Origin: a virus
Strand: one strand, 5' to 3'
Length of the DNA stretch: 64,000 nucleotides
Virus record (IMG/VR): IMGVR_UViG_3300008952_000015
Location: 1-64,000 of that record
Below are positions 1 through 38,824 of this stretch, in pieces. Position numbers and translations under genes: made by a program. The notes under the pieces were generated by a model that saw only the letters and a program-made list of their open reading frames with translations, was not told the origin of the DNA and searched no databases. Each line of letters begins with the position of its first letter. Position 1 is the stretch's first letter.

Positions 1-1492
1 GCATATAAGCTATTCTACGGCGAAGCTCTGCTCTCTTTCTTAATCTTGACTCATTCATAATATCCTCCATTATTGAATTGATTGAAAAGTCGTCTACATA
101 ATCATTATCTAGATCATTAGCAACCTTAATACTGTGATTTTTCCCATTTGATTCAACCGTCACAGCTTCACCGCCAGACGGATTGTTAAGTGACGCTACT
201 CTAGGCATGCCTAAAATATCATCCTCTGACGAGAGAAAATCAGGACCATTCCCGTTATCCCCACCGCCTAACATATTAACCTGTGAATTAGAGGCTCCGG
301 CACTATATGCAGGAACCTCACCTGAGCCCCGAAGCCCTTCTGAATTTTCAGGAGAAGTAAACGACTCCTGAGAAACTTGTGGCCTGGAACTCATCTTCCC
401 ATCTTCATCTGTATCAACTAACTCTAACAAACTGCTTAAAACTCTTTTTGCGCTATCTGGAACATCAGGATCCCCTAAGGCCTTAGCCGCTTCTGCCGCA
501 GCTCTTAAGCGTTCCGATACACCAGATGGCTCTGCACCGACAGAATTGGCGCTCGAAGCATCCTCAGAATGAGAAGTCTTTAATAATGAATTATTTTGCA
601 AAAAACTTCTGACAATTCTTTTTCGTTCGGCAATCGAGCAGCCCGTATCTCCACAGGCCGTCTTCATTATGCCTTCCAAGTGTTGAGCTTGACCAAATGA
701 AAGCTTGCCCAGCATTTCATCTACGTTATCTACTCCATAATTTGAAAGCTCTTCCCTGTAGTCCTGCAAAGATGCAATGCATTTTAATAATACCGCACCG
801 GGCTCTGCAGGTTGAACTACAAGACTATATTCTATTGGTTTTAAACCGACATTTATTTCGCCATGAGCAAGCCTGTTATTTACGTGCTCACAATACTCTC
901 CCTGAGTCTGTGCTCTATTTCCACAATCCGAGCATATAGATGTTTCAACCGCCGTACCCATTGAGCCATATCTAACAAGTCCTGTTTCGACCTTTCTAGC
1001 TAAGTCAGGGTAGTTAACCTTGTCTAGAGCGCAAAGACCAATGATTTGCTTGAATTTCTCATCGTAATGTGCATCTAAAATAATTCCACGAATTCCGTCT
1101 ACAGAGCTTGACTCGTGATCACGACACAACGGCATGCCTATCCATTTTTTTGCAGCAATCTTCAGTTCTGACTCTGGAAAAATATCATTATTATTGTTTC
1201 TGTGAGGCTTTACATTCCCGTGCCATTTCCAGTTTTCATCAAAAAAGCCCCAAGCGCTATCTCCGCTTGAGGTTTTCTTTATGAGCCCGGACTCGTCTAG
1301 GGTAGCAGATTCTGCTGCTTTTAAAAATATTATAGAAAAATATAAAAAGTCGTCTGACCTAGGAGCAATGGCTTTAATGCCAGTAGCAAGCTTGGTCATT
1401 CTTTCTACCAATTTTGGATTTGCCGAAATCTCTGCAGAGGTATGCGTAGCAACGGCATCACTTTCTGGAGAGAAACATACTTTTTTAAACAT
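1..1492 (-). CDS. Prohead (capsid maturation) serine protease with C-terminal scaffold-like extension; 3' end lies beyond the left window edge
   Basis: Not in the ORF track because there is no stop inside the window. Manual translation from ATG at 1492: MFKKVCFSPES...HRNNNNDIFPESEL...WIGMPLCRDH...YGSMGTAVETSICSDCG...YCEHV...IEYSLVVQPAEPGA. This gives the His, Ser (GSMG) and E-x-S-x-V-x-x-PA pattern plus a CxxC...CxH Zn insert typical of phage prohead proteases. It lies downstream of terminase and portal. Confidence 0.85.
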   Translation of the reverse strand, partial: MFKKVCFSPESDAVATHTSAEISANPKLVERMTKLATGIKAIAPRSDDFLYFSIIFLKAAESATLDESGLIKKTSSGDSAWGFFDENWKWHGNVKPHRNNNNDIFPESELKIAAKKWIGMPLCRDHESSSVDGIRGIILDAHYDEKFKQIIGLCALDKVNYPDLARKVETGLVRYGSMGTAVETSICSDCGNRAQTQGEYCEHVNNRLAHGEINVGLKPIEYSLVVQPAEPGAVLLKCIASLQDYREELSNYGVDNVDEMLGKLSFGQAQHLEGIMKTACGDTGCSIAERKRIVRSFLQNNSLLKTSHSEDASSANSVGAEPSGVSERLRAAAEAAKALGDPDVPDSAKRVLSSLLELVDTDEDGKMSSRPQVSQESFTSPENSEGLRGSGEVPAYSAGASNSQVNMLGGGDNGNGPDFLSSEDDILGMPRVASLNNPSGGEAVTVESNGKNHSIKVANDLDNDYVDDFSINSIMEDIMNESRLRKRAELRRRIAYM

Positions 1493-4083: not shown

Positions 4084-4383
4084 TCATAGTCTAATCATAA
4101 GCTCTTTAAGAACCGTGTTTATAAAATATGGATCCCTACCATTTAAAACATTTTTAACCAAACCAAGGCTAACTCCTATTGCGGCACCACCAGGGGCTTT
4201 CTTTGAAGATATCTCCACAACATTAAAATCATCAAGCCTAGATGACACGTTTTGGTAAGACCTCATCCTTGCGTCAGGCGACATTCTTGAGATCATAACC
4301 TTAATCATACCATGAAGCTGCTCAGCAACATATACTGGATTCTGCTCTAATAATTGAGAATATTTTTTTACCTTATCTGACAT
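4084..4383 (-). CDS. Hypothetical head-cluster protein
   Basis: ORF overlapping the upstream gene in an operon-like arrangement. Confidence 0.7.
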   Translation of the reverse strand: MSDKVKKYSQLLEQNPVYVAEQLHGMIKVMISRMSPDARMRSYQNVSSRLDDFNVVEISSKKAPGGAAIGVSLGLVKNVLNGRDPYFINTVLKELMIRL

Positions 4384-4918
4384 AATTCTCTGCCTTTGAC
4401 ACCGCCGCCTGATAAGCGTTTAGCTTAGCATTGCTTAATGCGACTCCACTATTAGCGCTAATAACCAAAACTCTATTAAATGTACTTACCAGCGTCATTA
4501 TCAGTTTGTTCTTATCTGCAACATCTGACTCTACAATCTTTATTAATAAATCTTTGAACAGCATAGAGTAATCAAGCTCTCTTTGCTCCGCAATCTTTTT
4601 TATCATAAAGTCTGCAAAATTAGCCATAACATGCTCACCTTCGCCGTCCATTTCGTCTGCAAGCATAACAAATAAATCTAATAATTTTTCCGAATCAACC
4701 TTCACCCTGGGGGTGAATCTTGGCGGAGGCAAAAGCTCCTTCTCTGGATCCGGATCATAAGCCGCCACGGGCTCTCCAGGCAGCGTAGGACCTCTTCCCA
4801 CTCCAAGGCCGGGCTCTGCACTTAGGCCCTCCTCTCCGGAAGATGTAGAGGGTATCTTCGTACACTTATCTGCTACCCTGCCCTCGGGAGCCCTAGACTG
4901 ATAGGCTATCTTCTTCAT
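4373..4918 (-). CDS. Hypothetical head-cluster protein carrying the repeated A-x2-LD-x2-G...K-x-A module
   Basis: N-terminus MKKIAY; internal LFVMLADEMDGEGEHVMANFADFMIKKIA. Confidence 0.7.
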   Translation of the reverse strand: MKKIAYQSRAPEGRVADKCTKIPSTSSGEEGLSAEPGLGVGRGPTLPGEPVAAYDPDPEKELLPPPRFTPRVKVDSEKLLDLFVMLADEMDGEGEHVMANFADFMIKKIAEQRELDYSMLFKDLLIKIVESDVADKNKLIMTLVSTFNRVLVISANSGVALSNAKLNAYQAAVSKAENYVR

Positions 4919-6432
4919 TTCTTTCGCCTTACCTTTCCGAACCCTTTCGAGGTAACTCTTTGAGCAAGCGACCTTCCCTTTATATTCTTAGGCCTAAACT
5001 TGTTTCCTTTAGAATCCTTAACCTTTCCTCCCATTATAACCAAATCTGACGGAGTAAAAAATACAGTTTCCCCACTTGGTGACCTTGCCTCATAATAAGG
5101 AGTTGTCTCTGTTGAGGCAGCTTTCTCAAGAGCCTTTAGCTGAGAGGCATTATCTATAAAGATGGGCACATTGCCATGTTTCGCAGAGACCCTCATAATC
5201 TCAACCCGCTCAGGAGTTCGCCCCTTCACTTCTCTTATGCCTTCTGGTCTAAAATAAATAGTTATTTCCGACCCACCAGAAACGCTTTCTCTTGTAACAT
5301 TATAAATAATTTTAGATAACTCTATGCCACTAGGAAGCGTAATCATGCCCTTATCTATAAAATGTCTAAGATAAGCCTCACCTGATCCGGAGGAATTAAC
5401 GTCATCTGCAGCCTCCCCCTTTATATATAACTTCACTACCGGCGTATCTTCACTATTTAATGCATGTTCATTTATATATATACCGTTTGCACCAGTTGGG
5501 TCCCTATGAACATACTGTCCTGGCCTGACTGCATGTATATAAATATTATCAGCAATAACCCTGTCTGCGGAAGCATCTTCGCCCTTGGACCCTTTGTCTG
5601 TGTCCTTGCTTTTTCCCAAATCTGAATTTAGGCCCTTCGTGTTATCAGAACTCTCCCTGAAGGCCTCTAGCACGCTCTTCCACTCTATCACTGCCTTGTA
5701 AAATCTTTTCAGTTCCGCAGCGTCTGCTTCCCGCTCCGCATTAAGGCCTTCATAATCAATCTTTGATCCCGATCCCAAAGATTGGTCAAACGAGGCAACC
5801 GCATCAAACTTCTCTCTTAAAATAGGTATGATTTGTTTGATTATCGTCTTGTAAGGACTCTTTTCGCTAAGGTTTGTAGTAGAAAGATCTTTTCCCTTAA
5901 ACTCAATCGCCATAGCCTCTATGTTCGTTATATCATTAAGTGGCCTTAGCCCTTCGGATAAAGATGGAATCTTGTCTATAATTTTAATAAATGGTTCAAA
6001 ATTTGAAAGATACAGCTGAATCGATGGAGCGATAATAACCTCGTTAAGCTTGTTTTTTGCTCTTAAGTTAATTTGCTCAGAAGCATCACTCCAATGACTA
6101 ACCTCTCTTATGCTCTTCTCTAATTCGCGGCTTGGCCTTATCATATTAATTGGAGCCGTAACTATTTCTGCTATATCATGAAACACTGAAGATGCATCTC
6201 TCTCAGAGGCAAAATCTGATAATGTGCCTTTTCTGATACCTTCTGATGCTGATTTCAGGGCAGACCTTAAAAGCTCAGCCGACTTCTCGTCTACTTCTAT
6301 TTTTTTTTCAGCACCTGATACACCAGGGCCTTCAGAATCTGCCGAGCCCGCGAGAGCAGCCTCTTCCTCCATCTCTCTCATCTCTTCAAGTTCAGCATCT
6401 GTGAACTCATTTGCATTAGATGTTTTTTTCAT
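4915..6432 (-). CDS. Hypothetical head-cluster protein
   Basis: 505-aa ORF directly downstream of portal; acidic N-terminus (MKKTS...), basic C-terminus. Confidence 0.7.
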   Translation of the reverse strand: MKKTSNANEFTDAELEEMREMEEEAALAGSADSEGPGVSGAEKKIEVDEKSAELLRSALKSASEGIRKGTLSDFASERDASSVFHDIAEIVTAPINMIRPSRELEKSIREVSHWSDASEQINLRAKNKLNEVIIAPSIQLYLSNFEPFIKIIDKIPSLSEGLRPLNDITNIEAMAIEFKGKDLSTTNLSEKSPYKTIIKQIIPILREKFDAVASFDQSLGSGSKIDYEGLNAEREADAAELKRFYKAVIEWKSVLEAFRESSDNTKGLNSDLGKSKDTDKGSKGEDASADRVIADNIYIHAVRPGQYVHRDPTGANGIYINEHALNSEDTPVVKLYIKGEAADDVNSSGSGEAYLRHFIDKGMITLPSGIELSKIIYNVTRESVSGGSEITIYFRPEGIREVKGRTPERVEIMRVSAKHGNVPIFIDNASQLKALEKAASTETTPYYEARSPSGETVFFTPSDLVIMGGKVKDSKGNKFRPKNIKGRSLAQRVTSKGFGKVRRKK

Positions 6433-6454
6433 ATCAATACTCGCCCCACATTAT

Positions 6455-8125
6455 CTAGCCGCCCCCCTCAGGGCCTCCCATTGAGCCTCCCATTGGGTCT
6501 CCCATGCCGCCGCCTTCCCCACCGGGCTCAACCCCAGGAATGGCAGCTTCGGCCGAAGAGGTCTCTCCAGGCGGCTCTGCTATAGCCTTGGCTGGATCAA
6601 CCCCCAAAAGCTCAGATAGCCGCATATTACCAAGCACCTGTTGCTCTTTTGCAAATACTTGCTCATCTATCATTTCTTCTCTGATTCTTCTTCGCTCTTC
6701 CTCATAGCTCAACCCAAGACTCCTATGGAGAGTCTGCAGAGATACCTGCTTATTTCCTACAAATTGGCCAATTGAGGTTATATAGTCTGCCATATCGTAT
6801 AGATTCATGTGATTAAAATCTATTGATGGAACAAGAAGCCTTTTTTCCCCATCTTTATATTCAAAAAAATCTTGAATCTCACATATTGGAGCAAATACTT
6901 TTCTTTCCAGCCATTTTTTCATCATATTTCTGAAAATATCATATCTTTGCCTAAGAACCTCAAGTCCCACGGAAGAGCTTGCATAAGTTGCGCTCTCCTG
7001 GTCCATCAAAGCCTTTGGGGTCATAAGCCCTGCGTATAAGTTTGTTACAATATGCTCAACGTCAGGCCCAACATCCATTGTGGCTCCAGAAAAGCCTACG
7101 CGCTCTATCTTGACCCCATTGTGTGTTACAATCTTAAAGTCTTTATCATACTGGGCTTCTTCTAGCAAGTTTTTAAAAGCCTCTATATCAGCCTGCGTTG
7201 GCCGGTATTCTCCCTCTCCGCCCATAGTAACCAGGGTAAGAGGGTTTATCATCCCATCTGCCTGAGCAAACTTTGATTCTCTAAGCTTATCGTAGAGCAT
7301 GAGATCCTTATACACGGATACCACAACAGAAGTTCCTCTTACATCATAGGGGGAGCTTAATAGCTTAAGGTGAGAAACATTAAACGCATCAAGCGGTATA
7401 TTTTGGCCCTTTTTTACATAGTCAATTATATGCTTTGGTATATATTTTCTCATAGATAAGTCAGATGGTGATGTCGAACTTATAATTCTCTGAAGATTGG
7501 CATCAGGTCTTAGTGATACCAGAGTGTGATTTCCTATCACAGACTTCTTTACATGTACATAATCTGGATTTAATATAGTAATCCGACTCCAAGTTCCAAG
7601 ACTCTCGTCAAGCTCTGCGTATGGAAAGGCCTCTCCCATCTTCCAGAACTCAAGAGCAGCGCCATACACTATTGAGTATAAATCAATTTTTTCTGCCATC
7701 TCCATAAAAAATTGCTGAACCTGCTTATTCTTGCATGTTATGTTTATCTTGCTAATGGGATAACTAGCGTGTAAGTTTATTGCGTTCCTAACAATCGGAT
7801 GAGTGTCATAAAATACCCTATTCCAGGCATTCATGGTCACCCTATCTCTTGGGAGATTTAAGTTAGCAAGCTGAAATAATGGAGAGTATATTTCTGGAGC
7901 CATCCTGTCCGTTGTCGAAGAAACAGAGGGTCCAGGCATAGGAGAAGCTATAGAGCCTGTTTTCCTAAAACCTGGGCTATGAGCAATTGCTCCATACTGC
8001 CCTGCAGATTCTCGCAAATCGGACTGCTTATTAACAGCGCTGGTTATCTCTGCGCGTCTAACGTCAGATAAAGATCCTGCGGCTTTCTTGGAAATATCTG
8101 TATTCGGCTTACCAGTTCTTTTCAT
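6455..8125 (-). CDS. Portal protein
   Basis: Immediately follows the terminase. YDTHPIVRNAINLH, GEAFPY, ILNPDYV, SPYDVRGTS and an acidic Gly/Pro-rich tail are typical of large-phage portals. Confidence 0.85.
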   Translation of the reverse strand: MKRTGKPNTDISKKAAGSLSDVRRAEITSAVNKQSDLRESAGQYGAIAHSPGFRKTGSIASPMPGPSVSSTTDRMAPEIYSPLFQLANLNLPRDRVTMNAWNRVFYDTHPIVRNAINLHASYPISKINITCKNKQVQQFFMEMAEKIDLYSIVYGAALEFWKMGEAFPYAELDESLGTWSRITILNPDYVHVKKSVIGNHTLVSLRPDANLQRIISSTSPSDLSMRKYIPKHIIDYVKKGQNIPLDAFNVSHLKLLSSPYDVRGTSVVVSVYKDLMLYDKLRESKFAQADGMINPLTLVTMGGEGEYRPTQADIEAFKNLLEEAQYDKDFKIVTHNGVKIERVGFSGATMDVGPDVEHIVTNLYAGLMTPKALMDQESATYASSSVGLEVLRQRYDIFRNMMKKWLERKVFAPICEIQDFFEYKDGEKRLLVPSIDFNHMNLYDMADYITSIGQFVGNKQVSLQTLHRSLGLSYEEERRRIREEMIDEQVFAKEQQVLGNMRLSELLGVDPAKAIAEPPGETSSAEAAIPGVEPGGEGGGMGDPMGGSMGGPEGGG

Positions 8126-8128
8126 TTT

Positions 8129-9904
8129 CTATATCCTCCGTTTTACCCTAGCCAACGTTGATTGCAAATATTCGCTCTTTCTATCTAAACCAGGTTTAAT
8201 AGTAAATCCTTTAGTTAAATCAAATTTATATGCCATATAAGCATACATCAGGGCCATAAGTCCATCATTTGGAGCCGATCCTTTAACAAATGTCTTGAGC
8301 GGCTGCCCCCCCGATATCCTTACTTTTGACTCCATAGAAGTGCAGTGATCAATTAACCACTCAACATACTCGTAGCTTTTCCATGGAAATCTTATTTTAC
8401 CCTTTCTGAACAAATCAAACAGCTCCTCTATCAAAAGATCTTTATTATAAGAAACGATGAGCTCGTCTTCTCGATATTTTATGGGCTTTATTAAACTACC
8501 ACTTCCTTGTGCTCCCAAGAACTTTTCTCCGTAAATACCCTGCAGGTCATGCACCACATCTTGTCCGAAGAACCAATCGGAAACTCCCCTTTTAACCCCG
8601 AACCTTCTGTACATCTCCTTTATAGTGTCTTTTTTGAATGAAAAATTATTCTTCTTAAGTTTATGAGCATGCTCAACTGTAAGCGTTCCATCTGGCTGCG
8701 CAGAAACTACCACTACGCAAGAGTAGGACTGGCCGCCCTTTGCATTTGGATCATCTTCTTTTCCGCCCCAATCAACGCCAAGGTAAACATCCCTGTCCAT
8801 TGGGTTTATACTTTTTGCGAAACTTCTATCTTGATCCCTACACTTATTGTAGACTTCTGCCTTAGTAAGAGGAGATCCGGCTCCAGAATAAAACTCTCCC
8901 ACTACTTCATTTTGCCAAATCCGCTCTGTTTGAGCCGGATTATTCTCAGGCATAAGCTTATCTATATTCTCTCTAGTAAAGTAAGGAATATATAATTGAT
9001 TTATATGAAAGCCAACAAAGCTGCAGTTATTCGGATTTCCCGTAGAAACCCATCTCCCCATCTCTATAGCCTCAACCTTCTTCTGCTTAGTGCCACATTG
9101 AGGACACTGAACAGTATTTTCATAAAGCCATATAGACTTCCACCTATCATCTCCTGGCAAGTAAAATGGATAGGTTTTTTTACAGTTTATGCAGCCCAAA
9201 TGATAATATCTTTGATCTGACATATCCCAAATCGTAGAAAAATAAGAACCCTTGTTCTTAGGGGTTCCGAAATATACCTGAACGCCCTGGCCAACCGGTC
9301 CATATTTTGCCGCTGTCAATATCTTTGTTGCGTTACCGATTGCATGCCCGAACATATCTTGAACTTCATCGAAGAATACAATATCCGCAGTCATACCACG
9401 AATCCTATCTCCATCTGAACCAAGGCTGTCTATCCACAGGGTTCCTGTTTGAAACTGCTTCATCGTTAGATTATCTACAGAGTTTTGACTAATAAGTTTG
9501 TTTTTATTTATGAAATCTTCTTTAGCAGTTCTTACTAAGGTCTCAAGCTTATCTTGTGAAAACTTTTTAACCTGTCCTAGGGCAGGAAATAGGTGTACAA
9601 CTCTAACGTTTGGATCGCAAAAAAGACCGCTGTTAGTAAAGAATAGGTCCAAGGCTCCGGCCATAACCGTAGCACCAACCTGCCGGCCCTTTTTGATAAC
9701 CACAGGCTTTCCATCTTTTCTTGTAGCCTGAAGGGCTATATGACGATAAATTTCCGCCATAAACTTCCAGCCGTTATCAAGAACCTGAAAGTCAGCTCCA
9801 TCTAGAGTTAAGTTGTTTTGAACGAAATGAGCTGGATCAAAGTCTAGAAAACCAGTTTTGAGCTGCTCAAAAAGCTTTTCGTTTGTTTTCTTTTCTTTTG
9901 ACAT
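8129..9904 (-). CDS. terL: Terminase large subunit (lambda gpA-like ATPase plus RNase H-like nuclease)
   Basis: KKGRQVGAT deviant Walker A, RIRGMTADIVFFDE Walker B, FGTP coupling motif, SDQRYY..CxxC..CxxC, GFHINQL, LGVDWG and NDGLMA nuclease motifs. Confidence 0.92.
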   Translation of the reverse strand: MSKEKKTNEKLFEQLKTGFLDFDPAHFVQNNLTLDGADFQVLDNGWKFMAEIYRHIALQATRKDGKPVVIKKGRQVGATVMAGALDLFFTNSGLFCDPNVRVVHLFPALGQVKKFSQDKLETLVRTAKEDFINKNKLISQNSVDNLTMKQFQTGTLWIDSLGSDGDRIRGMTADIVFFDEVQDMFGHAIGNATKILTAAKYGPVGQGVQVYFGTPKNKGSYFSTIWDMSDQRYYHLGCINCKKTYPFYLPGDDRWKSIWLYENTVQCPQCGTKQKKVEAIEMGRWVSTGNPNNCSFVGFHINQLYIPYFTRENIDKLMPENNPAQTERIWQNEVVGEFYSGAGSPLTKAEVYNKCRDQDRSFAKSINPMDRDVYLGVDWGGKEDDPNAKGGQSYSCVVVVSAQPDGTLTVEHAHKLKKNNFSFKKDTIKEMYRRFGVKRGVSDWFFGQDVVHDLQGIYGEKFLGAQGSGSLIKPIKYREDELIVSYNKDLLIEELFDLFRKGKIRFPWKSYEYVEWLIDHCTSMESKVRISGGQPLKTFVKGSAPNDGLMALMYAYMAYKFDLTKGFTIKPGLDRKSEYLQSTLARVKRRI

Positions 9905-9906
9905 TC

Positions 9907-10491
9907 TTATCCATTAGCATGAGAATAGTAATCAGCCATATCATCATCATGTGATGAGGTCATATCGGCCCCTGGTATATATTCTACTGCTTCTGGATCT
10001 TTTTTGTGCTTTTTAAGAATGGACAGCACTGCATCTTTAAACTTGTTATTAAGTCTTCTTTCAAGCCTATCAAAGCCTAAGTGGGGATGCTCTCTGCAGT
10101 GCGTCATCACAGCTCCATAGCCAGCTTCAGGTCTATCTTTTGCAAAAGAAGAAATATACGCCATAATCCTCTTAAGGTCCTGGATCAAAGCTTTTTTATC
10201 AGATGCTTTTTCCGAATTAGCCGAACACCCATCACAGGTGCCACATCCGCATCCGGCCTCCTTAACCGCCTCTTTTTCTGACGCATCAATATTCTTTACA
10301 AGATTGAACCCCGCCCGAGATTTTAGGTCCGCCATTTTTTCGTCTATAGTATCAAAGTCATTTCGCTTTTTCATTATAGATCGAAGGTTATCAAGATAAT
10401 CAGCATTTTTGTTCAAACCATTAGAAAAGTCTCTAACCCAACCAGCGGTTGTGCTATACTCCTCTGTTAAATTTTGCCTGTTTACCTTCAT
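9907..10491 (-). CDS. Hypothetical head-cluster protein
   Basis: ORF abutting terL; LNKNA and AVKEA motifs, the latter followed by CGCGTCDGC. Confidence 0.7.
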   Translation of the reverse strand: MKVNRQNLTEEYSTTAGWVRDFSNGLNKNADYLDNLRSIMKKRNDFDTIDEKMADLKSRAGFNLVKNIDASEKEAVKEAGCGCGTCDGCSANSEKASDKKALIQDLKRIMAYISSFAKDRPEAGYGAVMTHCREHPHLGFDRLERRLNNKFKDAVLSILKKHKKDPEAVEYIPGADMTSSHDDDMADYYSHANG

Positions 10492-10500
10492 AATTACCCC

Positions 10501-11106
10501 TTAATATAAGCCCATCTCGCCCATTCGTTCGCGGCGCTCATGATATTCCTCTTCTGCAGCCTCTGCTTGCTCTCTAGCATATTCTTCATATTGCTTTTTT
10601 TGCTCTACGGAAAGTCTTCCTTCGGCTACAACCGGAACCACTCTTTTGCCTTCGCACTGCGCACAAGTAATATCATATGTTCCACCAAAATAATCCTCTT
10701 CAAAGTCTGGGTCATCATAAAAGTCATCGCTAGTCAGACCTCCTGCATCTATATTTGGATCAACTGTTTTGCCCTTTCCTCCACACAGGCTGCAAACCTC
10801 AAGTTCTGCTGGCAAGTTAAGCTCTATCTCTTTTTCTTCCGTCCACTCTCCTGTGTCTGGATCCTGCGTCATATCATCATCATCTAAATACTTGGTCCAC
10901 GATATAGTAATGGTTCCTGATCTCTCATCATATCCTTTCCAAGCGCTTTTTGCGTTAGCCCTTGGGTCCATCATATAATTTCGATCTTCAAGTAAAGCGT
11001 CCCGATAAGAAGCCTCTTTTGCCAAGGCGCTTAGAAGTTTAGCCTCTCTAAGAAGACCTCTTGAGTTTAAAATGCTTGCTAATTCAGTTAATTTATCTAA
11101 CATCAT
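10501..11106 (-). CDS. Protein with the N-terminal repeated module and a DnaJ-like CxxCxGxG zinc finger
   Basis: N-terminus KLTELASILNSRGLLREAKLLSALAKEA; later CSLCGGKG and CAQCEGKR. Confidence 0.7.
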   Translation of the reverse strand: MMLDKLTELASILNSRGLLREAKLLSALAKEASYRDALLEDRNYMMDPRANAKSAWKGYDERSGTITISWTKYLDDDDMTQDPDTGEWTEEKEIELNLPAELEVCSLCGGKGKTVDPNIDAGGLTSDDFYDDPDFEEDYFGGTYDITCAQCEGKRVVPVVAEGRLSVEQKKQYEEYAREQAEAAEEEYHERRERMGEMGLY

Positions 11107-11115
11107 AAACCTCTT

Positions 11116-12168
11116 CTAATTAAAGTAACTTCTTACGAAGTCGATTCCGCGCTTATTGCCATCATCTTTAGAGGGCCCCGGAGAGTAAGAGCCTCTATCT
11201 TTAAAGATATGAAAACCACTGTCCATACATAATTGCATAATGGAAAGCTCTTCACGGTCGGTCAAATCATACTTTTTCTTAAGAGAGGCATAAACCTCTT
11301 CCATAGGGTGTCCGGCAGAAATATGTGCGTTAATCATCATCCCGGATATTGCTCTTTCAAAAGGAGAGACGGCGATAACTAAATTATTTGGAGTTGAAGC
11401 CTTCTTCTCTAGCTCTTCCGCCTCTTTGAGTTGCTCATAAGAAAGCTTCCTTCCAGAAGGGCTTTTCCAGTTTGGAACAGAATGCGCTTTAGATTCTTTT
11501 TGACTATGTCCATCTTTAATTTGCTTTTTTAGCTTTGATAGATGATCCTTGAGAACCAATACATCTCTCATGATGTTAACTCTTACATCTTCAAGCTTTG
11601 CTATATCCAAAACACTATCATGATCTTCTCGTATAGCTCTAGAGATATCTCCATTCATTCTATCTAGGAAGCTTATGGCTCTTTCACACCCGACTGTAGA
11701 TGTTCCATCGTGCTTTGGAATCTGTGACGGATACATTTCGCTTACATGAGCCATAAACTTAGACAAATCTTTATCGTTTGCATAATCTGTTTCAGGCTCC
11801 GGCTCATCGTCAGGCTTATAGTCGTCAGCGCCAGGCAGTAAATCAGATAGAGGGATATCACCGTGCTCTTCTGCGAATTGAGTCACGTCCTCATCTAATG
11901 CTTCCAGCTCTTCCCCTAGATCTCCGAGACTACCCTCTCCCTCTGTGAGGGGTTCGAGAAGGTCTCCAAGAGATGCGTCTTCCATTCTTTTTAGATCCTC
12001 TTCGAAGACCGTGACCGAATCAGCTTCTCCTCCAGATTCCTCTGCGAATTCCAATACATCATCTTCTGCAAAATCAAATGCGCCCTCTTCGTAAAGAACT
12101 TCATCCGGAGGTGCGACTTGGGCTGCTTCCTTATAAACTACTGTATTTTTCGTACTATTAGACATCAT
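11116..12168 (-). CDS. Hypothetical head-cluster protein with a very acidic N-terminal half
   Basis: 350-aa ORF; VYKEA, LKEA and EKKA motifs. Confidence 0.7.
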   Translation of the reverse strand: MMSNSTKNTVVYKEAAQVAPPDEVLYEEGAFDFAEDDVLEFAEESGGEADSVTVFEEDLKRMEDASLGDLLEPLTEGEGSLGDLGEELEALDEDVTQFAEEHGDIPLSDLLPGADDYKPDDEPEPETDYANDKDLSKFMAHVSEMYPSQIPKHDGTSTVGCERAISFLDRMNGDISRAIREDHDSVLDIAKLEDVRVNIMRDVLVLKDHLSKLKKQIKDGHSQKESKAHSVPNWKSPSGRKLSYEQLKEAEELEKKASTPNNLVIAVSPFERAISGMMINAHISAGHPMEEVYASLKKKYDLTDREELSIMQLCMDSGFHIFKDRGSYSPGPSKDDGNKRGIDFVRSYFN

Positions 12169-12173
12169 TTCTC

Positions 12174-12608
12174 CTATCCTATTAAGCTGTAAATCCCATA
12201 ATAAACATCTGTATTCTCATTATCATCAGAATAATAATTAATAGGATATCCATATTGAGCCTTGGGCATGTTTCCTATCATTATATGCGGGTACATAGGG
12301 CTTCCGTTTAATCCGGCACTTCCCGCCGGAAGAGACTGCTGGTTCTCGTCAAACTTGCAGTCTACAGATTCCTTATCCTCGTAAACCCTGTCGGCAAAGG
12401 GGCATTTCTTTGGCATCTCTGCCAAAAGCATCTCCTCTAAATTGTCTTCTAAGACCGCCTGTCTTTGCTCATCATCTTTGTACAAATAAAGTGGAACCAT
12501 CTTAGATATAACAGCAGACTCATCCTCTTCAGATGGTCCCCCGGCAGACATGCATCCGCCAGGTATCTGTAGCCCAAAGGGGCATGACTGTGTTTTTCCT
12601 CTGATCAT
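12174..12608 (-). CDS. Hypothetical Cys-containing protein
   Basis: CPFGL..GGC...CPFA...VDC; preceded by a TACTAATA motif. Confidence 0.65.
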   Translation of the reverse strand: MIRGKTQSCPFGLQIPGGCMSAGGPSEEDESAVISKMVPLYLYKDDEQRQAVLEDNLEEMLLAEMPKKCPFADRVYEDKESVDCKFDENQQSLPAGSAGLNGSPMYPHIMIGNMPKAQYGYPINYYSDDNENTDVYYGIYSLIG

Positions 12609-12637
12609 TTATAGTTCTTCCTAATAAAAGAATAAAG

Positions 12638-12645
12638 TATTAGTA
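12638..12645 (-). promoter_or_regulatory. Candidate late promoter TACTAATA
   Basis: About 30 nt upstream of the ATG at 12608, at the head of the gene run leading to terL and portal. Confidence 0.5.
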
Positions 12646-12648
12646 TTT

Positions 12649-13461
12649 TTAAACATATGTATCCCCTAGGCTTTTATCATTTAAAGTAATAGAGTCATCA
12701 AGATATTTTGCTATCATCCTTCTCTTTATAAGCTCTTCTTTAAAAGACCCTGTGAGAGGAATGAGGGACAATATCCCCATATCCATAAGATATCCTAAAG
12801 TTTTTTCTGCGTCTTCAGATATAGATTCGCCTACTATAGATGTAACAAATGCGTCTCGAAGAGTTCTCCCCATTTCTCTTGAGAATATATTTACATTATT
12901 TTTAGCATAATCGATTATACTTCCGTCAATAGAAAAACCTAGCCTGGCCGCAAAGTTTATTGCCCGAAAAACCCTTCTCAGATCGTCTCCGAAGCATATT
13001 TCTGGAGTAGTAATAGGTCTTATTAGCTTATTATCTAAATCCTTAACTGCTAAATCAGTAACGTCTAATAGATCGTGCTCAAAAAGCTTTTTATGCATAG
13101 TGTTTATTGTAAAATCTCTACTATATACTTCAAAAAGACTTCTATCTTTAACCCCATACTCGGAGCTCGCAAAGTCTACCGCCTTATCTGATATGAAATT
13201 GCCCGAGAAATCAAGAGCTTTATCCTCAAAATATACTGACACATGGCCATCCTCGAACATCTTAAATCCCAACTTTAGCTGAATAGCCGCAGATATACCA
13301 AGCCTGGGGGAGTCTGCGTCGTTAGTTGTTAGGTCGATATCAGTTTTAGTAATATTATTTAGATAAATATCTCGCGGAATGCCTCCGACAACCATTGGTT
13401 CAGATACATAGTTGCTAGACGATATATCTAATATGCTTTTATAAATTTCCTCTAGCCTCAT
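12649..13461 (-). CDS. Class II tRNA nucleotidyltransferase / poly(A) polymerase family protein (short form)
   Basis: VVGGIPRD...DIDLTT (motif A, DxD), SRDFTINTM (motif B), DDLRRVFRAINFAARLGF (motifs D/E). Confidence 0.88.
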   Translation of the reverse strand: MRLEEIYKSILDISSSNYVSEPMVVGGIPRDIYLNNITKTDIDLTTNDADSPRLGISAAIQLKLGFKMFEDGHVSVYFEDKALDFSGNFISDKAVDFASSEYGVKDRSLFEVYSRDFTINTMHKKLFEHDLLDVTDLAVKDLDNKLIRPITTPEICFGDDLRRVFRAINFAARLGFSIDGSIIDYAKNNVNIFSREMGRTLRDAFVTSIVGESISEDAEKTLGYLMDMGILSLIPLTGSFKEELIKRRMIAKYLDDSITLNDKSLGDTYV

Positions 13462-13494
13462 GTTTCACCCAAACCGTATTACTTGTATATCAGA

Positions 13495-14982
13495 CTATAT
13501 TTCTGACGCCTGAAGAGATTCCTCTTGAGGGCCTTCCTCGTCAGAAGCCTCTTCTTGAGGCTCAGACCTTCCTGGCAGGTCGCTTCTAGAATCTGCAATA
13601 GACTTTGCGTTGGCAAGCTGTCCCATCATCTTAGTGACCCTAGTTAGAGCATATGAAAAGGAATCAATAAGCTTACTTTGAGACTCTGCAAGCTCAGGAA
13701 ACATTGATGCGATCCCAATTTTATCCAGCATAATATCAAATTCGGCTAACTGCCTTATTATCCGTCTGTCTGCAAGCATGCCAGCTACCTCATCAAGCTT
13801 TTTCGCTGCATCATCTAGAGAAATACTTCCAGCAAGCTCATCGTACTCACCTGGTCTTGCTCCGGGAACAGGTGTTATATCCTTAAGCTCTACGGGGTCG
13901 ACATCATCTCCGGAAGGTATAGCTGACTTTGGATCATTAGGATCTGGAGCAGCAGCCTCCTCTGGAACAGCAGCAGCCTCCTCTGGAACAGCAGCAGCCT
14001 CCTCTGGAACAGCAGCAGCCTCCTCTGGAACCTGCTGAGCTATTTTGACCAACATTTCAGCCACATCTTTTTGCCCATGCTTCTCAAGGGTGTTTGCAGT
14101 CCTGTGCGTTACATCAGAAATTGTACTTGCGAGCTTTAAGCAGTGAACCTGATGGCTTAAGTTAAGAAGATGTTCTGCTAACATCTTATACTTCTCTCCA
14201 TCCATGTGCTTGCTCCTCAAAAGCTTATCTATACGCCTTAAGGCTCCATGCAACTTGCCCTTCCATGAGCTAAATGCATCACTTTCATCAGCATCTCTTA
14301 TGGACCGATTTGCGGTCTCATCGAAGGTCGCCCCATCAAAGCTGTCTCCAGGCATGTTGAATCCACCGCCACTATGAGTATAGTTGCTATTTCCCTGTCC
14401 TAGGTTACTCATGTAAATAGCGCTCTTTTTCATATCTTGCTCCTTGTCGGAAGAGTACTTTAGGTGCTCTCCTTCACTATAATATTTAAACCATTTCTTA
14501 AACCGAGTATCTTCTTCTCTCTCTATATCTAGAAAATTACTATAATACTCTAGGGCCTTTTGCTTTGGCATTTGATTCTTTTGTACTGCATCATAAATTA
14601 AGTGAACAGTTTTTAGCCACTTATTTATATCTACTTCATCTTTTGTATCATAATTTTGCCCAAAAGGATTCGGATAAGCAACCTTCTTTATTCCACGCTC
14701 CTTAATTCGATTTTCCAAAAGAATTAAGTATGCATCATTTTTATTTGTAATACCTGTGGCCACAGCTTCACGGAAAACGCTTTCTGGCACCTTTAGGCCT
14801 AGAGAACGGCCAGCAGCCTTAACCAGTTTATACGATAAGATCTTATCGTCAGAGTCTATACCAAGATCTGTTAGCTCCGCCCCCTTCTTAGTTAAAATAT
14901 GAAATTCTTTTGAAGCATAGGATATATTAATCTTAGATAATTTTCTAAGGAAGTATTCATTAACATTTAAAGAAATAGTCAC
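13495..14982 (-). CDS. Hypothetical head-cluster protein with multiple K-x-A motifs and a VPEEAAA repeat
   Basis: IKKVAY, MKKSAI, LVKIAQ; shortened copy of the repeated module (TANTLEKHGQKDVAEMLVKIA). Confidence 0.7.
   Translation of the reverse strand: MTISLNVNEYFLRKLSKINISYASKEFHILTKKGAELTDLGIDSDDKILSYKLVKAAGRSLGLKVPESVFREAVATGITNKNDAYLILLENRIKERGIKKVAYPNPFGQNYDTKDEVDINKWLKTVHLIYDAVQKNQMPKQKALEYYSNFLDIEREEDTRFKKWFKYYSEGEHLKYSSDKEQDMKKSAIYMSNLGQGNSNYTHSGGGFNMPGDSFDGATFDETANRSIRDADESDAFSSWKGKLHGALRRIDKLLRSKHMDGEKYKMLAEHLLNLSHQVHCLKLASTISDVTHRTANTLEKHGQKDVAEMLVKIAQQVPEEAAAVPEEAAAVPEEAAAVPEEAAAPDPNDPKSAIPSGDDVDPVELKDITPVPGARPGEYDELAGSISLDDAAKKLDEVAGMLADRRIIRQLAEFDIMLDKIGIASMFPELAESQSKLIDSFSYALTRVTKMMGQLANAKSIADSRSDLPGRSEPQEEASDEEGPQEESLQASEI
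13948..14031. repeat. Perfect 21-bp tandem repeat x4 (agcagcagcctcctctggaac), encoding (VPEEAAA)4
   Basis: Read directly; units start at 13948, 13969, 13990 and 14011. Confidence 0.95.
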
Positions 14983-15218
14983 TCTCCGGCCCTCTCAATC
15001 AAAGCATCTATTTTATCTAACCATTTTCTTTTATCCTTAACCCTTTGTTCGTACACAGCCTCTCTCAGGTAACCTAACAACGATCTCATATGTGCTTTTG
15101 GAACAGGATTATCTTCAGGATATAGGGTAAGGCTTCTCTTGAGCCACTCCTCAAAAGAAACAAGACTGCTGATGTCCTTAAAATCAAACACCTTATATGT
15201 CTTTCCGTCAATCAACAT
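14979..15218 (-). CDS. Hypothetical protein
   Basis: ORF overlapping both neighbours. Confidence 0.6.
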   Translation of the reverse strand: MLIDGKTYKVFDFKDISSLVSFEEWLKRSLTLYPEDNPVPKAHMRSLLGYLREAVYEQRVKDKRKWLDKIDALIERAGE

Positions 15219-15891
15219 CTATAATCTCTCCCTCTAGCTCTCCAAAGGAGCCTGTCAAAACTTTGGTTCTTGCATCAAGTCTTTCTACGAAAACAGTTAT
15301 TAGTTCTGGACTAATTTCGCCAAGCACATCAATTACTGTTTCTTTCAAAATTCTTGCCTGCTCATTTACTACATTAATATTAATATTATGATCAATTCGT
15401 TTATCTGCAACTCCCTCTACATACTTCTTCCAGTCCTGCATTAAGCCTTTCATAGTGTTTATGTATTCTATGAAGATCTTATCCTCTCGAAGAGTGCCTC
15501 CATTTTCCAGCAAATTGTAATAGAATTCTAGCCTAGAGTTTATCAAGGAGTCCATCTCAAGAAGCCTTCTTGATACATCAAGCTTCCCTTCTGCTATCTC
15601 CTCGATCTTCTGCTGATAAGCAGAAGAGTTCTGTATAACCATTTTCGTCTCAGCCTCAACGGCTTCCCTGTCAAGTTCTGTTCTGCGATTCTTTATATCG
15701 CCAAGAACATCTCCTTTTAAATTTAAATGATCTGCTCTAAACTTTTGAAGAGTCATATAAGATACGTGCAATCTTTTTGACCTAGGGTATTTCTCTTTAA
15801 GCCATCTCTCTACTTCCTTTACAGAGTCTCCGCCTAATAATCTTTTGATCATATCCTCTTTATCGGGATGGTTTAATACTTTCTTGCTCAT
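15208..15891 (-). CDS. Putative terminase small subunit / HTH plus coiled-coil protein
   Basis: N-terminal HPDK..I..LL.G.SVKEV..WL...VSY.TL..F HTH-like region, central helical region and NININ-type beta segment; sits in the head cluster. Confidence 0.45.
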   Translation of the reverse strand: MSKKVLNHPDKEDMIKRLLGGDSVKEVERWLKEKYPRSKRLHVSYMTLQKFRADHLNLKGDVLGDIKNRRTELDREAVEAETKMVIQNSSAYQQKIEEIAEGKLDVSRRLLEMDSLINSRLEFYYNLLENGGTLREDKIFIEYINTMKGLMQDWKKYVEGVADKRIDHNININVVNEQARILKETVIDVLGEISPELITVFVERLDARTKVLTGSFGELEGEIIDVD

Positions 15892-15904
15892 ATTTTCTCC
15901 AGTT

Positions 15905-15946
15905 AAAAAAAATGCCCCGGTTATATATTACCTTAACCAGAGCATT
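15905..15946 (-). terminator. Intrinsic terminator
   Basis: Minus strand reads AATGCTCTGGTTA-loop-TAACCGGGGCATT followed by a T run, downstream of ORF 15978..16877. Confidence 0.75.
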
Positions 15947-15977
15947 AAAATTAGTATAGAGTTTTGAAAGCTGCTTA

Positions 15978-16877
15978 TTATCTATTCTTGCTCATCCATG
16001 TATCCAAAAGGTCGGATACATCGTGAAGGCCACAATCATCTAATGATGAAGCAACACTTACAATGGGGCTAAGATTAAGCTGCGCCTTAATATGGCTTGC
16101 TAAACTTTTTATGGTCAAATCTAATTCGTTAGACTCCTGGTCAAAGCCGACGCTGTCGAGTGTATTTGAAATAGCTACTAAAGAATTCGTCATGTGAGCC
16201 AACGAAGTCTTACCAACTTCGAGAATTTGCCTCTCATCTTCTGTAAGATTTTGCGGAGTTAACTCACGAAGCCTGCCTTCTGATAGCTTATAGCCAGACT
16301 CAGGATCCCTGTGAGCTATTACAAGGTTCTTTATTATAAAACCTATATCCATAACATGATCTTCAGATCTGAGCCTGCCCTCAGGTCCTGCCCAATCCCA
16401 GTCACTTGCCGCAACCTTCTTCAGGACACCGTCTAATCTGTCAGCCTCTTTTGACAAGCCTTTTGCATCTAAAACACTTGCCATCCTTGAAAGACTAGAT
16501 TGTAAGGATGCGCTTCCACCTGGAAAAGATCTTCCATCTTCGGTTTTAAAGCCTTCGTTATAATCATATACCTTGTTCGTATAAGGGTCTTGATAAACCC
16601 CGTCAGACACCCTTTGGGCCTGAACGCCTATTCTATCTGGAGAATATCGAGTAGATAGATGAGGTGCCACGTATTCGGTAGGAACCCTTGAGTCATCACC
16701 CTCGGGCGCTATATTGTAAAGAGATTCCGTATCTCTGCCTATCGGAGCCTCTCCGCCCCTCTGAGAGAGATACCTCTCTCTTGTTGCATAGTCTGTAGTG
16801 TTAGACTGAAAGTGCTGAAAAATACCATGCTGATCTCCTACGGCTACTTTTGATATTCTACGTCTTGTCTTACTCAT
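15978..16877 (-). CDS. Head-cluster protein with three copies of the repeated module
   Basis: SLSRMASVLDAKGLSKEADRLDGVLKKVA, SLVAISNTLDSVGFDQESNELDLTIKSLA, PIVSVASSLDDCGLHDVSDLLDTWMSK. Confidence 0.75.
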   Translation of the reverse strand: MSKTRRRISKVAVGDQHGIFQHFQSNTTDYATRERYLSQRGGEAPIGRDTESLYNIAPEGDDSRVPTEYVAPHLSTRYSPDRIGVQAQRVSDGVYQDPYTNKVYDYNEGFKTEDGRSFPGGSASLQSSLSRMASVLDAKGLSKEADRLDGVLKKVAASDWDWAGPEGRLRSEDHVMDIGFIIKNLVIAHRDPESGYKLSEGRLRELTPQNLTEDERQILEVGKTSLAHMTNSLVAISNTLDSVGFDQESNELDLTIKSLASHIKAQLNLSPIVSVASSLDDCGLHDVSDLLDTWMSKNR

Positions 16878-19009: not shown

Positions 19010-19450
19010 CTACTCTTCCTCACCTTTATTGATCTTTGCAATTTCAGCCAGAATCTCATTTACTCTTTCATGATTTTTACAAATCTTTTTTATTTTTTTT
19101 ATTATTCCGCCGTATCTTTTCTTTTGATTTTTATAGTCAATATTCCCATGCATAGCCTTGTGTACAGCCGATTGAGTTATCCCTAAATGTTCAGCAATAT
19201 CATTTTGAGTCTTGCCCATTAATCTCATAAAGAGAATCTTTTTTTGATGCTCTGTTAGATATTCTCCATTGACAATATCATATATTTCATCTAAAAGCTC
19301 TTCTTTGAGATCGGTGATTCTTTCATCACAAGAGTTGGCCATTAGGACCTGCCCCATGCCGCGCTCTGTTGAAAAATTATTTAGCTTAAGAGATTCAAAG
19401 GATATTTCAACTATCTTATATTGATACGATTTACTTTTTCTTTTTGCCAC
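19010..19450 (-). CDS. Stand-alone sigma70 region 4-like HTH DNA-binding protein
   Basis: LTEHQKKILFMRLMGKTQNDIAEHLGITQSAVHKAM; GTG start at 19450 with AGGA RBS. Confidence 0.7.
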   Translation of the reverse strand: MAKRKSKSYQYKIVEISFESLKLNNFSTERGMGQVLMANSCDERITDLKEELLDEIYDIVNGEYLTEHQKKILFMRLMGKTQNDIAEHLGITQSAVHKAMHGNIDYKNQKKRYGGIIKKIKKICKNHERVNEILAEIAKINKGEEE

Positions 19451-19455
19451 GATTC

Positions 19456-20211
19456 CTACCACATATCTGGAATTATCTGCTTAAAGTCTCTAAAGAAATC
19501 AGCCTTATTGTGACTTCGAAAATACTCGTCTACATCTTTATTTCCATCGGGTACTCTTAAAAACCTTAGCTTTATACCTTTGTTTATATACTTAGAATAT
19601 ATTCTTTCTGCTGACTTTTGGCCAGCATCATCTGAGTCAAGAATAAATGTTATCTTATCTGTATATCTTGCTAATTTAATAAAATGATTTTGAGAAAAAG
19701 ACGTACCGCATATAGCTACAGAATTCTCTAATTCATTTTGACACATAGCTATCTGGTCAAAATAGCCTTCTACGACATAGACGTTTGAATTTCTTAAACA
19801 CGACTCCTTTGCTTTATCCAGTCCATATAAAATATTTCCCTTCTTATAAGAAGAGTTTTTATATTTAGGGATTCCAAGAGCCGCCCTCTCAGAGTCTCCA
19901 ATGAGCGTCCTGCCGCTAACGCCAACTGGGTCGCCATACTCAGAAAATATTGGAAATATCAAATAAAAATAATTTGAAAAGTCACTATCTTTAGAATAAT
20001 TTAATATATTTAACTTATTTAAAATATCTTCAGATACATACTTCGTAAGAACATCTATATTTTGAGGGAAGAACCCAATCTTGTTATCAATAATGGAACT
20101 CTTTGAAAGCTTTCTTTCTTTTATCAAATACTTCAGACAGCCTTTTGAGTTCCTTATATTTGAGTGACATATATTTATTAAAGCACTAAGTTGCTCACGC
20201 TGATTCATCAT
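19456..20211 (-). CDS. dnaG: DnaG-type primase catalytic core (RNAP/TOPRIM), lacking the Zn-binding domain
   Basis: YL..R.L, LIFPI, GVSGR, PKYKNS, LYGL, VVEGYFD, DSDDAG, KDVDE. Confidence 0.9.
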   Translation of the reverse strand: MMNQREQLSALINICHSNIRNSKGCLKYLIKERKLSKSSIIDNKIGFFPQNIDVLTKYVSEDILNKLNILNYSKDSDFSNYFYLIFPIFSEYGDPVGVSGRTLIGDSERAALGIPKYKNSSYKKGNILYGLDKAKESCLRNSNVYVVEGYFDQIAMCQNELENSVAICGTSFSQNHFIKLARYTDKITFILDSDDAGQKSAERIYSKYINKGIKLRFLRVPDGNKDVDEYFRSHNKADFFRDFKQIIPDMW

Positions 20212-38105: not shown

Positions 38106-38823
38106 CTCTTACTATCAAATCTCCAAGCATATCTGTTATGAGCTTGTACTTAGAAAGCTTCTTCAACCTCATACTTGCGGCCCACCCAGTTAGGCCAACT
38201 TCGCTAGCGGCATCTTTTATGGAGAACCCATCCAAACATACCTTTCTTAAAATAATGTAAGTCTTCTCGTCCACTAGAGAAGCCACTTTTTCTATGGCCA
38301 GCTCTAGATCTATTCTCTCATATACAGTTCCATCTTCAGAATACAAGGAATCAGAATTAGACAAAGTATTTTGAAATTCACAATACTCCTCCCCACTATT
38401 AGGGTCTACCTTTGCCATAGCGCTAAAGCTCAACTCCTCTCTTGATTTTCTATACTTAGGCTTCTCTTCTTCTCCAGGCGCAGAAAGCTCTCTCAAAGAG
38501 CATGCATCATTAGATAGCTTATTTACGCTTTTAATTTTAGATATCAACTTATTTCTAAGATGTGTATGTAAAAAGGTGCTTAATTTAACTTTTTTGTCAG
38601 GATCATAAGCGTTTATGCCCTCTACTATTATAATAGAAAGCTCTTGCTTTATATCCTCATAAGTATATCCAGGGAGATATGTCCTCGATGACCACTTGCA
38701 CAGCAGCGGGTCTATTCGCTCAAGAACCCTTGAGTACCCCTGTTTTGTCTTCATGTCAATATAGACCTTCTCTTCATACATCTCTACATATCCGCTGTAA
38801 GCATTCTTCATATGATCTCCCAT
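38098..38823 (-). CDS. Phage sigma70-family factor
   Basis: Region 2 YEDIKQELSIIIVEGINAYDPDKKVKLSTFLHTHLRN; region 4 GFSIKDAASEVGLT; start probably 38823 or 38811. Confidence 0.8.
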   Translation of the reverse strand: MGDHMKNAYSGYVEMYEEKVYIDMKTKQGYSRVLERIDPLLCKWSSRTYLPGYTYEDIKQELSIIIVEGINAYDPDKKVKLSTFLHTHLRNKLISKIKSVNKLSNDACSLRELSAPGEEEKPKYRKSREELSFSAMAKVDPNSGEEYCEFQNTLSNSDSLYSEDGTVYERIDLELAIEKVASLVDEKTYIILRKVCLDGFSIKDAASEVGLTGWAASMRLKKLSKYKLITDMLGDLIVRDE

Positions 38824-38824
38824 C

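Follow-up and report, generated by a model that had tools for sequence, protein, structure and literature searches.

The locus and its module copies

The DNA considered here is the first 64 kb of a 128,565-bp virus record (IMG/VR record IMGVR_UViG_3300008952_000015, G000 below), and this 64,000-nucleotide stretch is referred to as the window. Several proteins encoded in the window, otherwise dissimilar, carry a module of about 30 residues. A preliminary description, made from the letters of the window, had pointed out six copies of it and proposed that it is a helix-turn-helix label by which cargo is loaded into the head and from which it is then clipped. All six stretches were located, and five of them are homologous by profile tests, while the third is still unproven. 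As first marked, copy 1 covers residues 82-110 of its ORF and copy 2 residues 5-32. Carriers and copies are as follows.

4373..4918, minus strand: p181, a head-cluster protein of 181 amino acids (aa), encoded between the portal protein and a protease-domain protein
4586..4681, minus strand: copy 1, divergent, residues 80-111 of p181, assigned by comparison of an orthologue profile with the module profile
10501..11106, minus strand: 201-aa carrier with an N-terminal module, two CxxCxGxG-type zinc-finger motifs and an acidic tail
11008..11094, minus strand: copy 2, residues 5-33 of the 201-aa carrier (leave-one-out E 9e-4; broad hidden Markov model, HMM, independent E-value, iE, 7.9e-8)
13495..14982, minus strand: open reading frame (ORF) of a 495-aa protein with candidate copy 3
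14038..14112, minus strand: candidate copy 3, residues 291-315 of the 495-aa protein, unproven
15978..16877, minus strand: p299, a 299-aa carrier in which a conserved N-terminal domain of ~125 aa is followed by three modules
16410..16496, minus strand: copy 4, residues 128-156 of p299, the most canonical in the window (broad HMM iE 2.2e-12)
16098..16184, minus strand: copy 5, residues 232-260 of p299 (broad HMM iE 6.5e-9; 0.039-0.045 in independent tests)
15987..16067, minus strand: copy 6, residues 271-297 of p299, C-terminal (broad HMM iE 5.8e-8; leave-one-out 0.083)

The scan suggested by the preliminary description, with an HMM built from the six copies, detected eight further proteins of the genome (E 1.9e-8 to 8.6e-4), all outside the window; in seven of the eight, the modules are much closer to each other than the six initial copies are. 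An iterated six-frame scan gave 13 significant matches, all in minus-strand coding frames, and twenty shuffled proteomes gave no module match at iE<0.01. When each protein was left out in turn, 10 of the 12 carrier proteins were recovered at E<=0.0013, and the two missed in this test on single sequences were those at 4373-4918 (copy 1) and 13495-14982 (copy 3). An HMM trained on seven out-of-window copies only found copy 4 at iE 5.7e-8, copy 5 at 0.039 and copy 2 at 0.073, and module copies outside the training set reached E-values down to 1e-17. Altogether, the broad HMM recognizes 12 canonical modules (iE<=7.9e-8) in 10 proteins of the genome, to which the copy of p181 is to be added. Borderline matches were obtained for the ORF at 9907-10491 (iE 0.017) and for an endolysin-like protein with a PG_binding_1 domain (genome 96063-97313, minus strand; iE 0.11), whose module-like stretch covers residues 36-56, near the probable true start of the protein.

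The two weakest copies were compared with the module through their orthologues. Alignment by hhalign of 38 unique p181 orthologues with the module profile returned a probability of 95.5% and an E-value of 1.4e-8, and 15 of the 38 match the broad module HMM at iE<0.01. Conversely, a profile of p181 orthologues only matches canonical modules with its positions ~80-110 (50 full-length and 360 partial matches locally), as well as modules in the related record G007. The stretch kept in the 38 orthologues reads L-V-x-L-A-D-x-M-D-x-x-G-E-x-x-x-A-x-F-A-D-F-L-I-K-K-I-A, and these reciprocal profile matches indicate that copy 1 is homologous to the module. Copy 3 has its stretch kept in 46 orthologues, which align with the module in the register first proposed, at a weak hhalign probability of 28.5% (E 6e-4). 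None of 56 sequences (the window protein and 55 orthologue segments) matches the module HMMs at iE<0.01, and the reciprocal matches, in the same register, are weak (iE 0.005-0.6) and partly aided by a low-complexity linker. Copy 3 is probably a true copy, to be kept as an unproven candidate. Right after it, at residues ~316-345 of the 495-aa protein, PEEAAAV is repeated four times in tandem, and orthologues of this protein have other linkers rich in Pro, Glu and Ala in its place.

The module had been regarded as a feature of the head cluster, a framing that must be abandoned since eight of the 11 carrier proteins are encoded beyond the window, at genome 71-108 kb. An island at 103.0-108.3 kb holds five of them, two neighbours lie at 71.8-73.1 kb and the last at 89.9 kb. 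The first observation was real but understated and mis-framed: the module is a genome- and lineage-wide family.

Conservation and predicted fold

The consensus of the module is L-x-K-L-A-N-H-L-D-x-K-G-L-x-K-E-A-D-Y-L-D-x-I-I-K-K, over ~30 residues. A logo was drawn from 223 modules in the best 150 of 2,220 cluster representatives retrieved from metagenomic data (see below). Its most conserved positions are L4 (86%), L7 (72%), A8 (89%), N9 (78%), L11 (98%), D12 (99%), G15 (97%), K18 (76%), E19 (92%), A20 (95%), D21 (80%), L23 (80%), D24 (97%) and I27 (71%), with no conservation past about column 31. On average the module has a net charge of -0.5, and some of its acidic residues are invariant. 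Four of the initial copies do end in K-x-A, as had been stated, but in the family K/R-x-A, scored at module columns 28-30, is found in only 85 of the 223 modules (38%) and nothing is conserved before internal or C-terminal copies, so that clipping at this motif, as first envisaged, is not borne out.

Selection acts on the protein and not on the DNA: identical residues share the same codon in 45% of 295 columns, where codon usage would predict 38%. A repeated DNA element is ruled out by this test, synonymous sites varying freely.

In agreement with the helix-turn-helix initially proposed, AlphaFold2 models every copy as a pair of helices joined by a turn. The predicted helix pairs of p299 span residues 122-138/142-157, 213-243/246-267 and 273-281/285-297. 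For p181, a disordered N-terminal part of 75 aa is predicted to precede a C-terminal part of five helices (76-93, 96-113, 117-130, 136-156 and 161-180), of which the module would be the first pair.

Novelty of the module

Searches of domain libraries returned nothing on the module itself. With Pfam at E<=1, the 12 carriers gave only DUF5591, on one payload; at E<=0.001, 144 of the 150 representatives were without a family, and among the six others only an AP2 domain was clearly above the cut-off. PHROGs v4 gave no match for 79 of 80 representatives and NCBIfam r20 none on the module, and p181 belongs to no Pfam or PHROG family. The 12-copy profile of the module was compared with all PDB chain sequences, where the best match (E 0.084) was partial and unrelated; a second alignment gave no match there either. 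Foldseek at E<=0.001 found no match for the p299 model in PDB or for the p181 model in BFVD. In the ESM Atlas, the 68-aa carrier encoded at genome 106976-107182 matched only unnamed viral clusters (scores 0.77-0.84), which are leads at best. A tblastn search of 50,697 phage records with two carriers gave no match at E<=10, with a low-complexity filter that may have masked the query. A limited literature search, by motif strings and for marine jumbo-phage gene content, found no paper describing the module. That the module might be an already described domain, a possibility raised at the outset, thus found no support in Pfam, PHROGs, NCBIfam or PDB sequences; judged by sequence, it constitutes a new, large and virus-restricted family, not in the domain libraries searched.

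Proteins that carry the module

The module is not bound to one place in its carriers. Of the 223 modules, 121 are N-terminal (100 of them beginning at residue 2), 33 are C-terminal and 69 internal, and proteins of 35-57 aa that consist of the module only also occur, such as P0060 with 35 aa. Among the 150 representatives, 86 have one copy, 55 two and nine three. The notion of one portable module on otherwise dissimilar proteins is upheld, the payloads of G000 having no mutual blastp similarity. Payloads lean towards the acidic: a net charge per residue of less than -0.05 is found in 46% of 140 payloads but in only 24% of the proteome. Segments resembling transmembrane (TM) helices were predicted in seven of 256 carriers versus 23 of 171 proteome proteins, which rules out membrane anchoring as a general role. 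One carrier (P0161, 310 aa) joins the module to a clear multi-pass membrane protein of the hemolysin III/PAQR type (E 5.9e-15, five TM-like segments), and its tag would face the cytoplasm.

Few payloads are recognizable. Precomputed Pfam annotation of 120 carriers names LysM and hemolysin III on two of them, and AP2 is another recognizable payload part. It had been stated that the module is absent from enzymes, which is correct for the window; beyond its limits, an ArcS/DUF5591-like domain is present in one carrier and an HExxH motif, noticed by eye, in another. The 201-aa carrier matches DnaJ_CXXCXGXG weakly (E 0.02), and DnaJ-type CxxCxGxG zinc-finger pairs or zinc ribbons recur behind the module (10501-11106, minus strand; P0003; P0007). 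The gene of this carrier fills a slot of variable content immediately upstream of the terminase region, in which some module-led gene is usually found, and the payload of the carrier has one real orthologue among 80 related loci.

The two other carriers in the window are fixed proteins. The N-terminal domain of p299 has 37 unique orthologues, of which 13 have no module, 15 have one, seven have two and two have three, so that the module comes and goes on a fixed protein. Residues 1-125 of p299, strongly conserved, include an invariant L-S-T-R-Y-x-P as well as P98 and F110, and Q126 is also invariant; AlphaFold2 predicts a beta-rich core (strands 88-119, pLDDT, the local confidence score, about 90), and no family or fold match was found for this domain. 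p181 is encoded downstream of the portal in related contigs, where its 38 unique orthologues are found. The upstream regions of 11 carrier genes have no common motif by eye, and for that reason no temporal class is assigned to these genes.

Distribution in viruses and metagenomes

The 12-copy profile was scored against 1.84 billion metagenomic cluster representatives (50% identity), of which 2,220 match at E<=1e-3 and 58 at E<=1e-10. Every member of these clusters that was looked up is of metagenomic origin; many stem from ocean surveys, and some lie on contigs 315-348 kb long. The module core, written as a strict DNA pattern for which we estimate ~0.1 chance matches, occurs 33 times on 17 viral contigs, at least 10 of which belong to the same terminase lineage, and once in 596 Gb of prokaryote genomes, in a chance-like match that by eye is devoid of helix 1. 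An equal occurrence in cellular sequences, which would have spoken against the initial proposal, was thus not observed in these prokaryote genomes. Used as a query, carrier P0069 retrieved seven related viral loci and no related locus in prokaryote genomes. In these searches, the module was found only in viral and metagenomic sequences of one marine jumbo-phage lineage, and the family of the initial copies extends to related jumbo phages.

Related records hold different numbers of modules: seven in G001, four in G002, five in G003, two in G004, 13 in G007 (94% complete, with the lineage terminase at 73% identity) and 21 in G008. They are mostly gathered in one island per genome, at 144.8-161.7 kb in G007 and at 53-62 kb in G008, and in a further contig (L115) 12 consecutive ORFs start with a module, forming a tandem array. 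At 24 loci with enough flank, p181 and modules are both present in 21 and both missing in one, with one discordant locus of each kind, a count with too few negatives to speak for or against a link. One gene of the G007 island (G007:C1:154866-155126) matches positions 80-159 of the p181 profile, that is the hairpin and the next helices, and may be a paralogue of p181 inside the module island.

The virus record and its lineage

The minus strand of the record holds 165 of its 195 crude ORFs. The head and packaging genes of the window include a large terminase (8129..9904, minus strand; PF05876, E 1.6e-15; phrog_675, E 4.2e-60) and a portal protein (6455..8125, minus strand; phrog_16240, E 1.1e-48). 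The ORF at 1..1492 (minus strand), cut by the contig start, encodes the first 497 aa of a protein of ~1135 aa with a head-maturation-protease-like domain at residues ~100-250 (phrog_18299, E 7.4e-14). Its full-length orthologues are open frames of 1135 and 1155 aa, and the other ~900 aa of this unusually large protease-bearing head protein (window 1-1492; L117:124-3531) are without a family match. In the closest relative, G006, whose terminase is 94% identical, the protease-domain protein is followed by ORFs of 281, 230, 149, 1036 and 207 aa, then by the major head protein and tail-fibre-like genes. The major head protein of the lineage (L117:9412-10530 in G006; 372 aa; phrog_2522, E 5.6e-72) sits ~10 kb past the end of the head cluster of the present record, which explains why the window does not include it.

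Among related contigs, the completeness rating is 39-66% for lengths of 132-222 kb and 94-100% for lengths of 317-395 kb; judging from these sizes and ratings, we infer that the record is a fragment of a marine jumbo phage of roughly 320-390 kb. Its terminase has no close relative among the 50,697 deposited phage records (best identity 26%), and at least 150 relatives were found in IMG/VR, 80 of which, at 65-94% identity, were kept. The remaining genes of the record include those for a DnaE-type polymerase, RecA, two chaperonins, several sigma-like proteins, ClpP, ThyX, PurA and a glutamine-synthetase-like protein. Both chaperonins belong to the Cpn60/GroEL family (window 21719-23377 and genome 75228-76838, both on the minus strand). 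Also encoded are Hsp20 (56861-57385), ClpP (57793-58362), an M16 peptidase (59248-60450) and a DUF2201 metallopeptidase-VWA protein adjoining an AAA_5 ATPase (60547-62835). At least three sigma-70-like proteins with regions 2 and/or 4 (window 19010-19462 and 38098-38865; genome 90738-91610) suggest phage-directed promoter switching. Among the largest ORFs, those of 2294 aa (29793-36677, minus strand) and 1171 aa (52101-55616, minus strand) match no Pfam or PHROG family, and one of 1897 aa (46406-52099) has Ig-like and PKD domains.

Comparison with known systems

The capsid targeting sequence (CTS) of phage T4 is a linear leader of ~10 residues that is removed by the prohead protease. Diverse internal proteins of T4 are described as sharing only a capsid targeting sequence (PMC3012670). 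The module has in common with it that a conserved tag, shared by polymorphic payloads, sits on highly diverse small phage proteins, mostly at the extreme N-terminus, and that the genes cluster. It differs from it as a predicted folded hairpin of ~30 residues that is also found C-terminally, internally, repeated or alone (102 of the 223 modules are elsewhere than at the N-terminus). It has neither sequence likeness to the CTS nor a conserved prohead-protease cleavage motif at its end, K/R-x-A being confined to the minority of modules given above.

The helix-turn-helix of the P22 scaffolding protein is basic, whereas the module is about neutral with invariant acidic residues. The size and fold of the two are alike, at ~30 residues and, for the module, by AlphaFold2 prediction. 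The module has no sequence match to any PDB chain, however, and one scaffold protein in P22 stands against 10-20 diverse proteins per genome here. This element of P22 is a U-shaped helix-turn-helix of ~30 residues that docks on the inner procapsid surface (PMC9965877) and that has reportedly been used for loading foreign cargo into P22 shells.

Positions L4, L7, A8, L11, A20 and I27 of the module presumably recall positions 4, 7, 8, 11, 20 and 27 of the TPR consensus, which we take as a lead only. Unlike TPRs, the units of the module are isolated or separated by linkers and do not form tandem super-helices of at least three units, and TPR models gave no match at E<=1 in the 12 carriers nor at E<=0.001 in the 150 representatives. 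The F-box and PRANC families of viruses and the trafficking domains of polymorphic toxins also join a short conserved module to variable payloads in arrays. They have no homology to the present module, and are found in eukaryotic viruses or in bacteria and not in phages.

What the module may do

The reading towards which we lean, as a somewhat probable one, is that the module is a small folded alpha-alpha hairpin working as a portable protein-protein docking tag for one phage-specific partner. One conserved binding surface is suggested because hundreds of near-identical tags sit on unrelated payloads and keep exposed polar positions at 80-99%. Because a two-helix hairpin could not bury its hydrophobic face alone, it would have to pack on something. 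All tags of one genome would bind the same conserved, lineage-specific partner surface, which most simply would be another hairpin of the same kind. The fixed hairpin members would then be p181 (4373-4918) and the multi-hairpin p299 (15978-16877), near the packaging genes, and the polymorphic payloads would be gathered on one phage-built assembly, multiple copies in a carrier providing avidity or cross-linking. Over the unique modules counted, H10 is paired with Y or F22 in 207. Outside the clade of G000 and G006, the commonest residues at columns 10 and 22 are H (47%) and Y (41%). In the paralogous tags of G000 and G006, H10 and Y22 are each found in 1 of 17. Such a joint change would be expected from a shared partner or from mutual binding.

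Several points weigh against the docking tag as drawn here. The pairing of column 10 in helix 1 with column 22 in helix 2 is the strongest long-range covariation in the module, in a calculation that ignores relatedness, and the clade-wide shift may instead reflect gene conversion or shared descent. The confidence of the predicted fold is moderate, with pLDDT ~52-86 across the copies of p299. Because the list of 150 representatives was ordered by summed score, multi-copy proteins are over-represented in it. The binding of hairpin to hairpin would be deduced from anatomy only. Finally, modules and a p181 homologue are both missing from G005, a single but complete genome whose terminase is 68% identical.

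The procapsid interior, with payloads that would be packaged and injected, is the leading single candidate for the assembly, although a tentative one. As a special case of docking, the hairpin would attach 10-20 polymorphic proteins per genome to the scaffold or core of the prohead, a possible but doubtful reading. It follows by analogy the T4 logic of a conserved tag on polymorphic payloads (PMC3012670) and the anchoring of the P22 scaffold helix-turn-helix on the inner procapsid surface (PMC9965877). It is consistent with tags that begin at residue 2, tandem arrays of tag-led genes, a protease-like domain encoded in the record, the homologous hairpin of the conserved p181 between portal and protease-domain protein, soluble payloads poor in TM-like segments, and a virus-only distribution. 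A leader in the style of T4 fits poorly with the internal, C-terminal and stand-alone modules and with the 64 of 150 proteins that have two or three copies. Loading into the capsid in general is further opposed by the scarcity of K/R-x-A with no conserved motif before internal copies, by the one carrier that is a multi-pass membrane protein, by the acidic lean of the payloads and by the absence of any module from the 15 kb that lead from the protease through the major head protein to the tail fibre in G006. Most carriers, moreover, are encoded in islands ~100 kb from the head genes; T4 internal-protein genes likewise lie outside the head cluster. A complex prediction of residues 72-181 of p181 with the module scored 0.00 in two runs, in which the controls did not fold, and it weighs neither for nor against binding. 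A still more specific version, which we hold to be slightly less probable again, would have the tag dock on the cognate hairpin of a head-cluster protein, thereby loading 10-20 polymorphic, fast-evolving effectors per genome into the prohead, which would enter the host along with the DNA and serve as an exchangeable arsenal for counter-defence; a folded tag would work at either end, and cleavage would be unneeded.

The assembly could also be cytoplasmic, with the hairpin plugging variable payloads, such as binders of substrates or targets, into a protease, chaperone or RNA polymerase of host or phage. We consider this unlikely, albeit in keeping with a small conserved helical motif joined to variable domains in multigene arrays, with the ClpP, M16 and DUF2201 peptidases, Hsp20, two chaperonins and several sigma-like proteins of the genome, with the DnaJ-type zinc fingers of several carriers, and with islands set amid small unknown ORFs typical of host-takeover regions. 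F-box and PRANC motifs, which link variable viral proteins to a ligase, provide the analogy. The PDB matches that might name such a hub, Skp1 and a glycosyltransferase, are only partial and are attributed to chance because their E-values are 0.08-1.1 and they cover half of the module. Less probable yet is plain self-association, by which the hairpin would only dimerize or oligomerize its own carrier, for instance as a four-helix bundle, and build no shared assembly. The hydrophobic face that a lone hairpin would expose, as judged from the logo, and the frequency of proteins with two or three copies point that way. Near-identical tags on hundreds of payloads would mix, however, and self-association alone would therefore already make a shared assembly; the conservation of exposed polar N9, D12, K18, E19, D21 and D24 also exceeds the need of a generic dimerizer.

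That the module binds nucleic acids, as a helix-extended-helix motif like SAP, HeH or Rho_N, appears very improbable. The pattern 'L..L...L..[KR]GL' is, as we see it, superficially like SAP-type motifs, a resemblance that model searches do not support: no SAP, HeH, LEM or Rho_N match was found at E<=1 in the 12 carriers or at E<=0.001 in the 150 representatives. The slightly negative mean charge with invariant acidic residues also argues against it, as does the linker of SAP, which is longer than that of the module. Chance resemblance, a compositional artefact or a repeated DNA element would be in line with a short, helical motif and with the two initial copies that fail single-sequence tests, and has next to no probability left: it is ruled out by the E-values of untrained copies (to 1e-17), the empty shuffles, the free variation of synonymous sites and a family of 2,220 representatives.

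Significance of the module

Variable payloads that share one universal tag are the hallmark of systems for delivery or recruitment. If the module is indeed a docking tag, a large family, in no domain library searched and in no paper found in the searched literature, would mark from sequence alone the exchangeable accessory proteins of uncultured ocean jumbo phages, and it opens experimental work without culturing the phage. The identity of the receptor would tell the purpose of these dark-matter proteins, and should it be the prohead, the module would offer a natural tag by which proteins could be loaded into a large capsid whatever its position in the chain.

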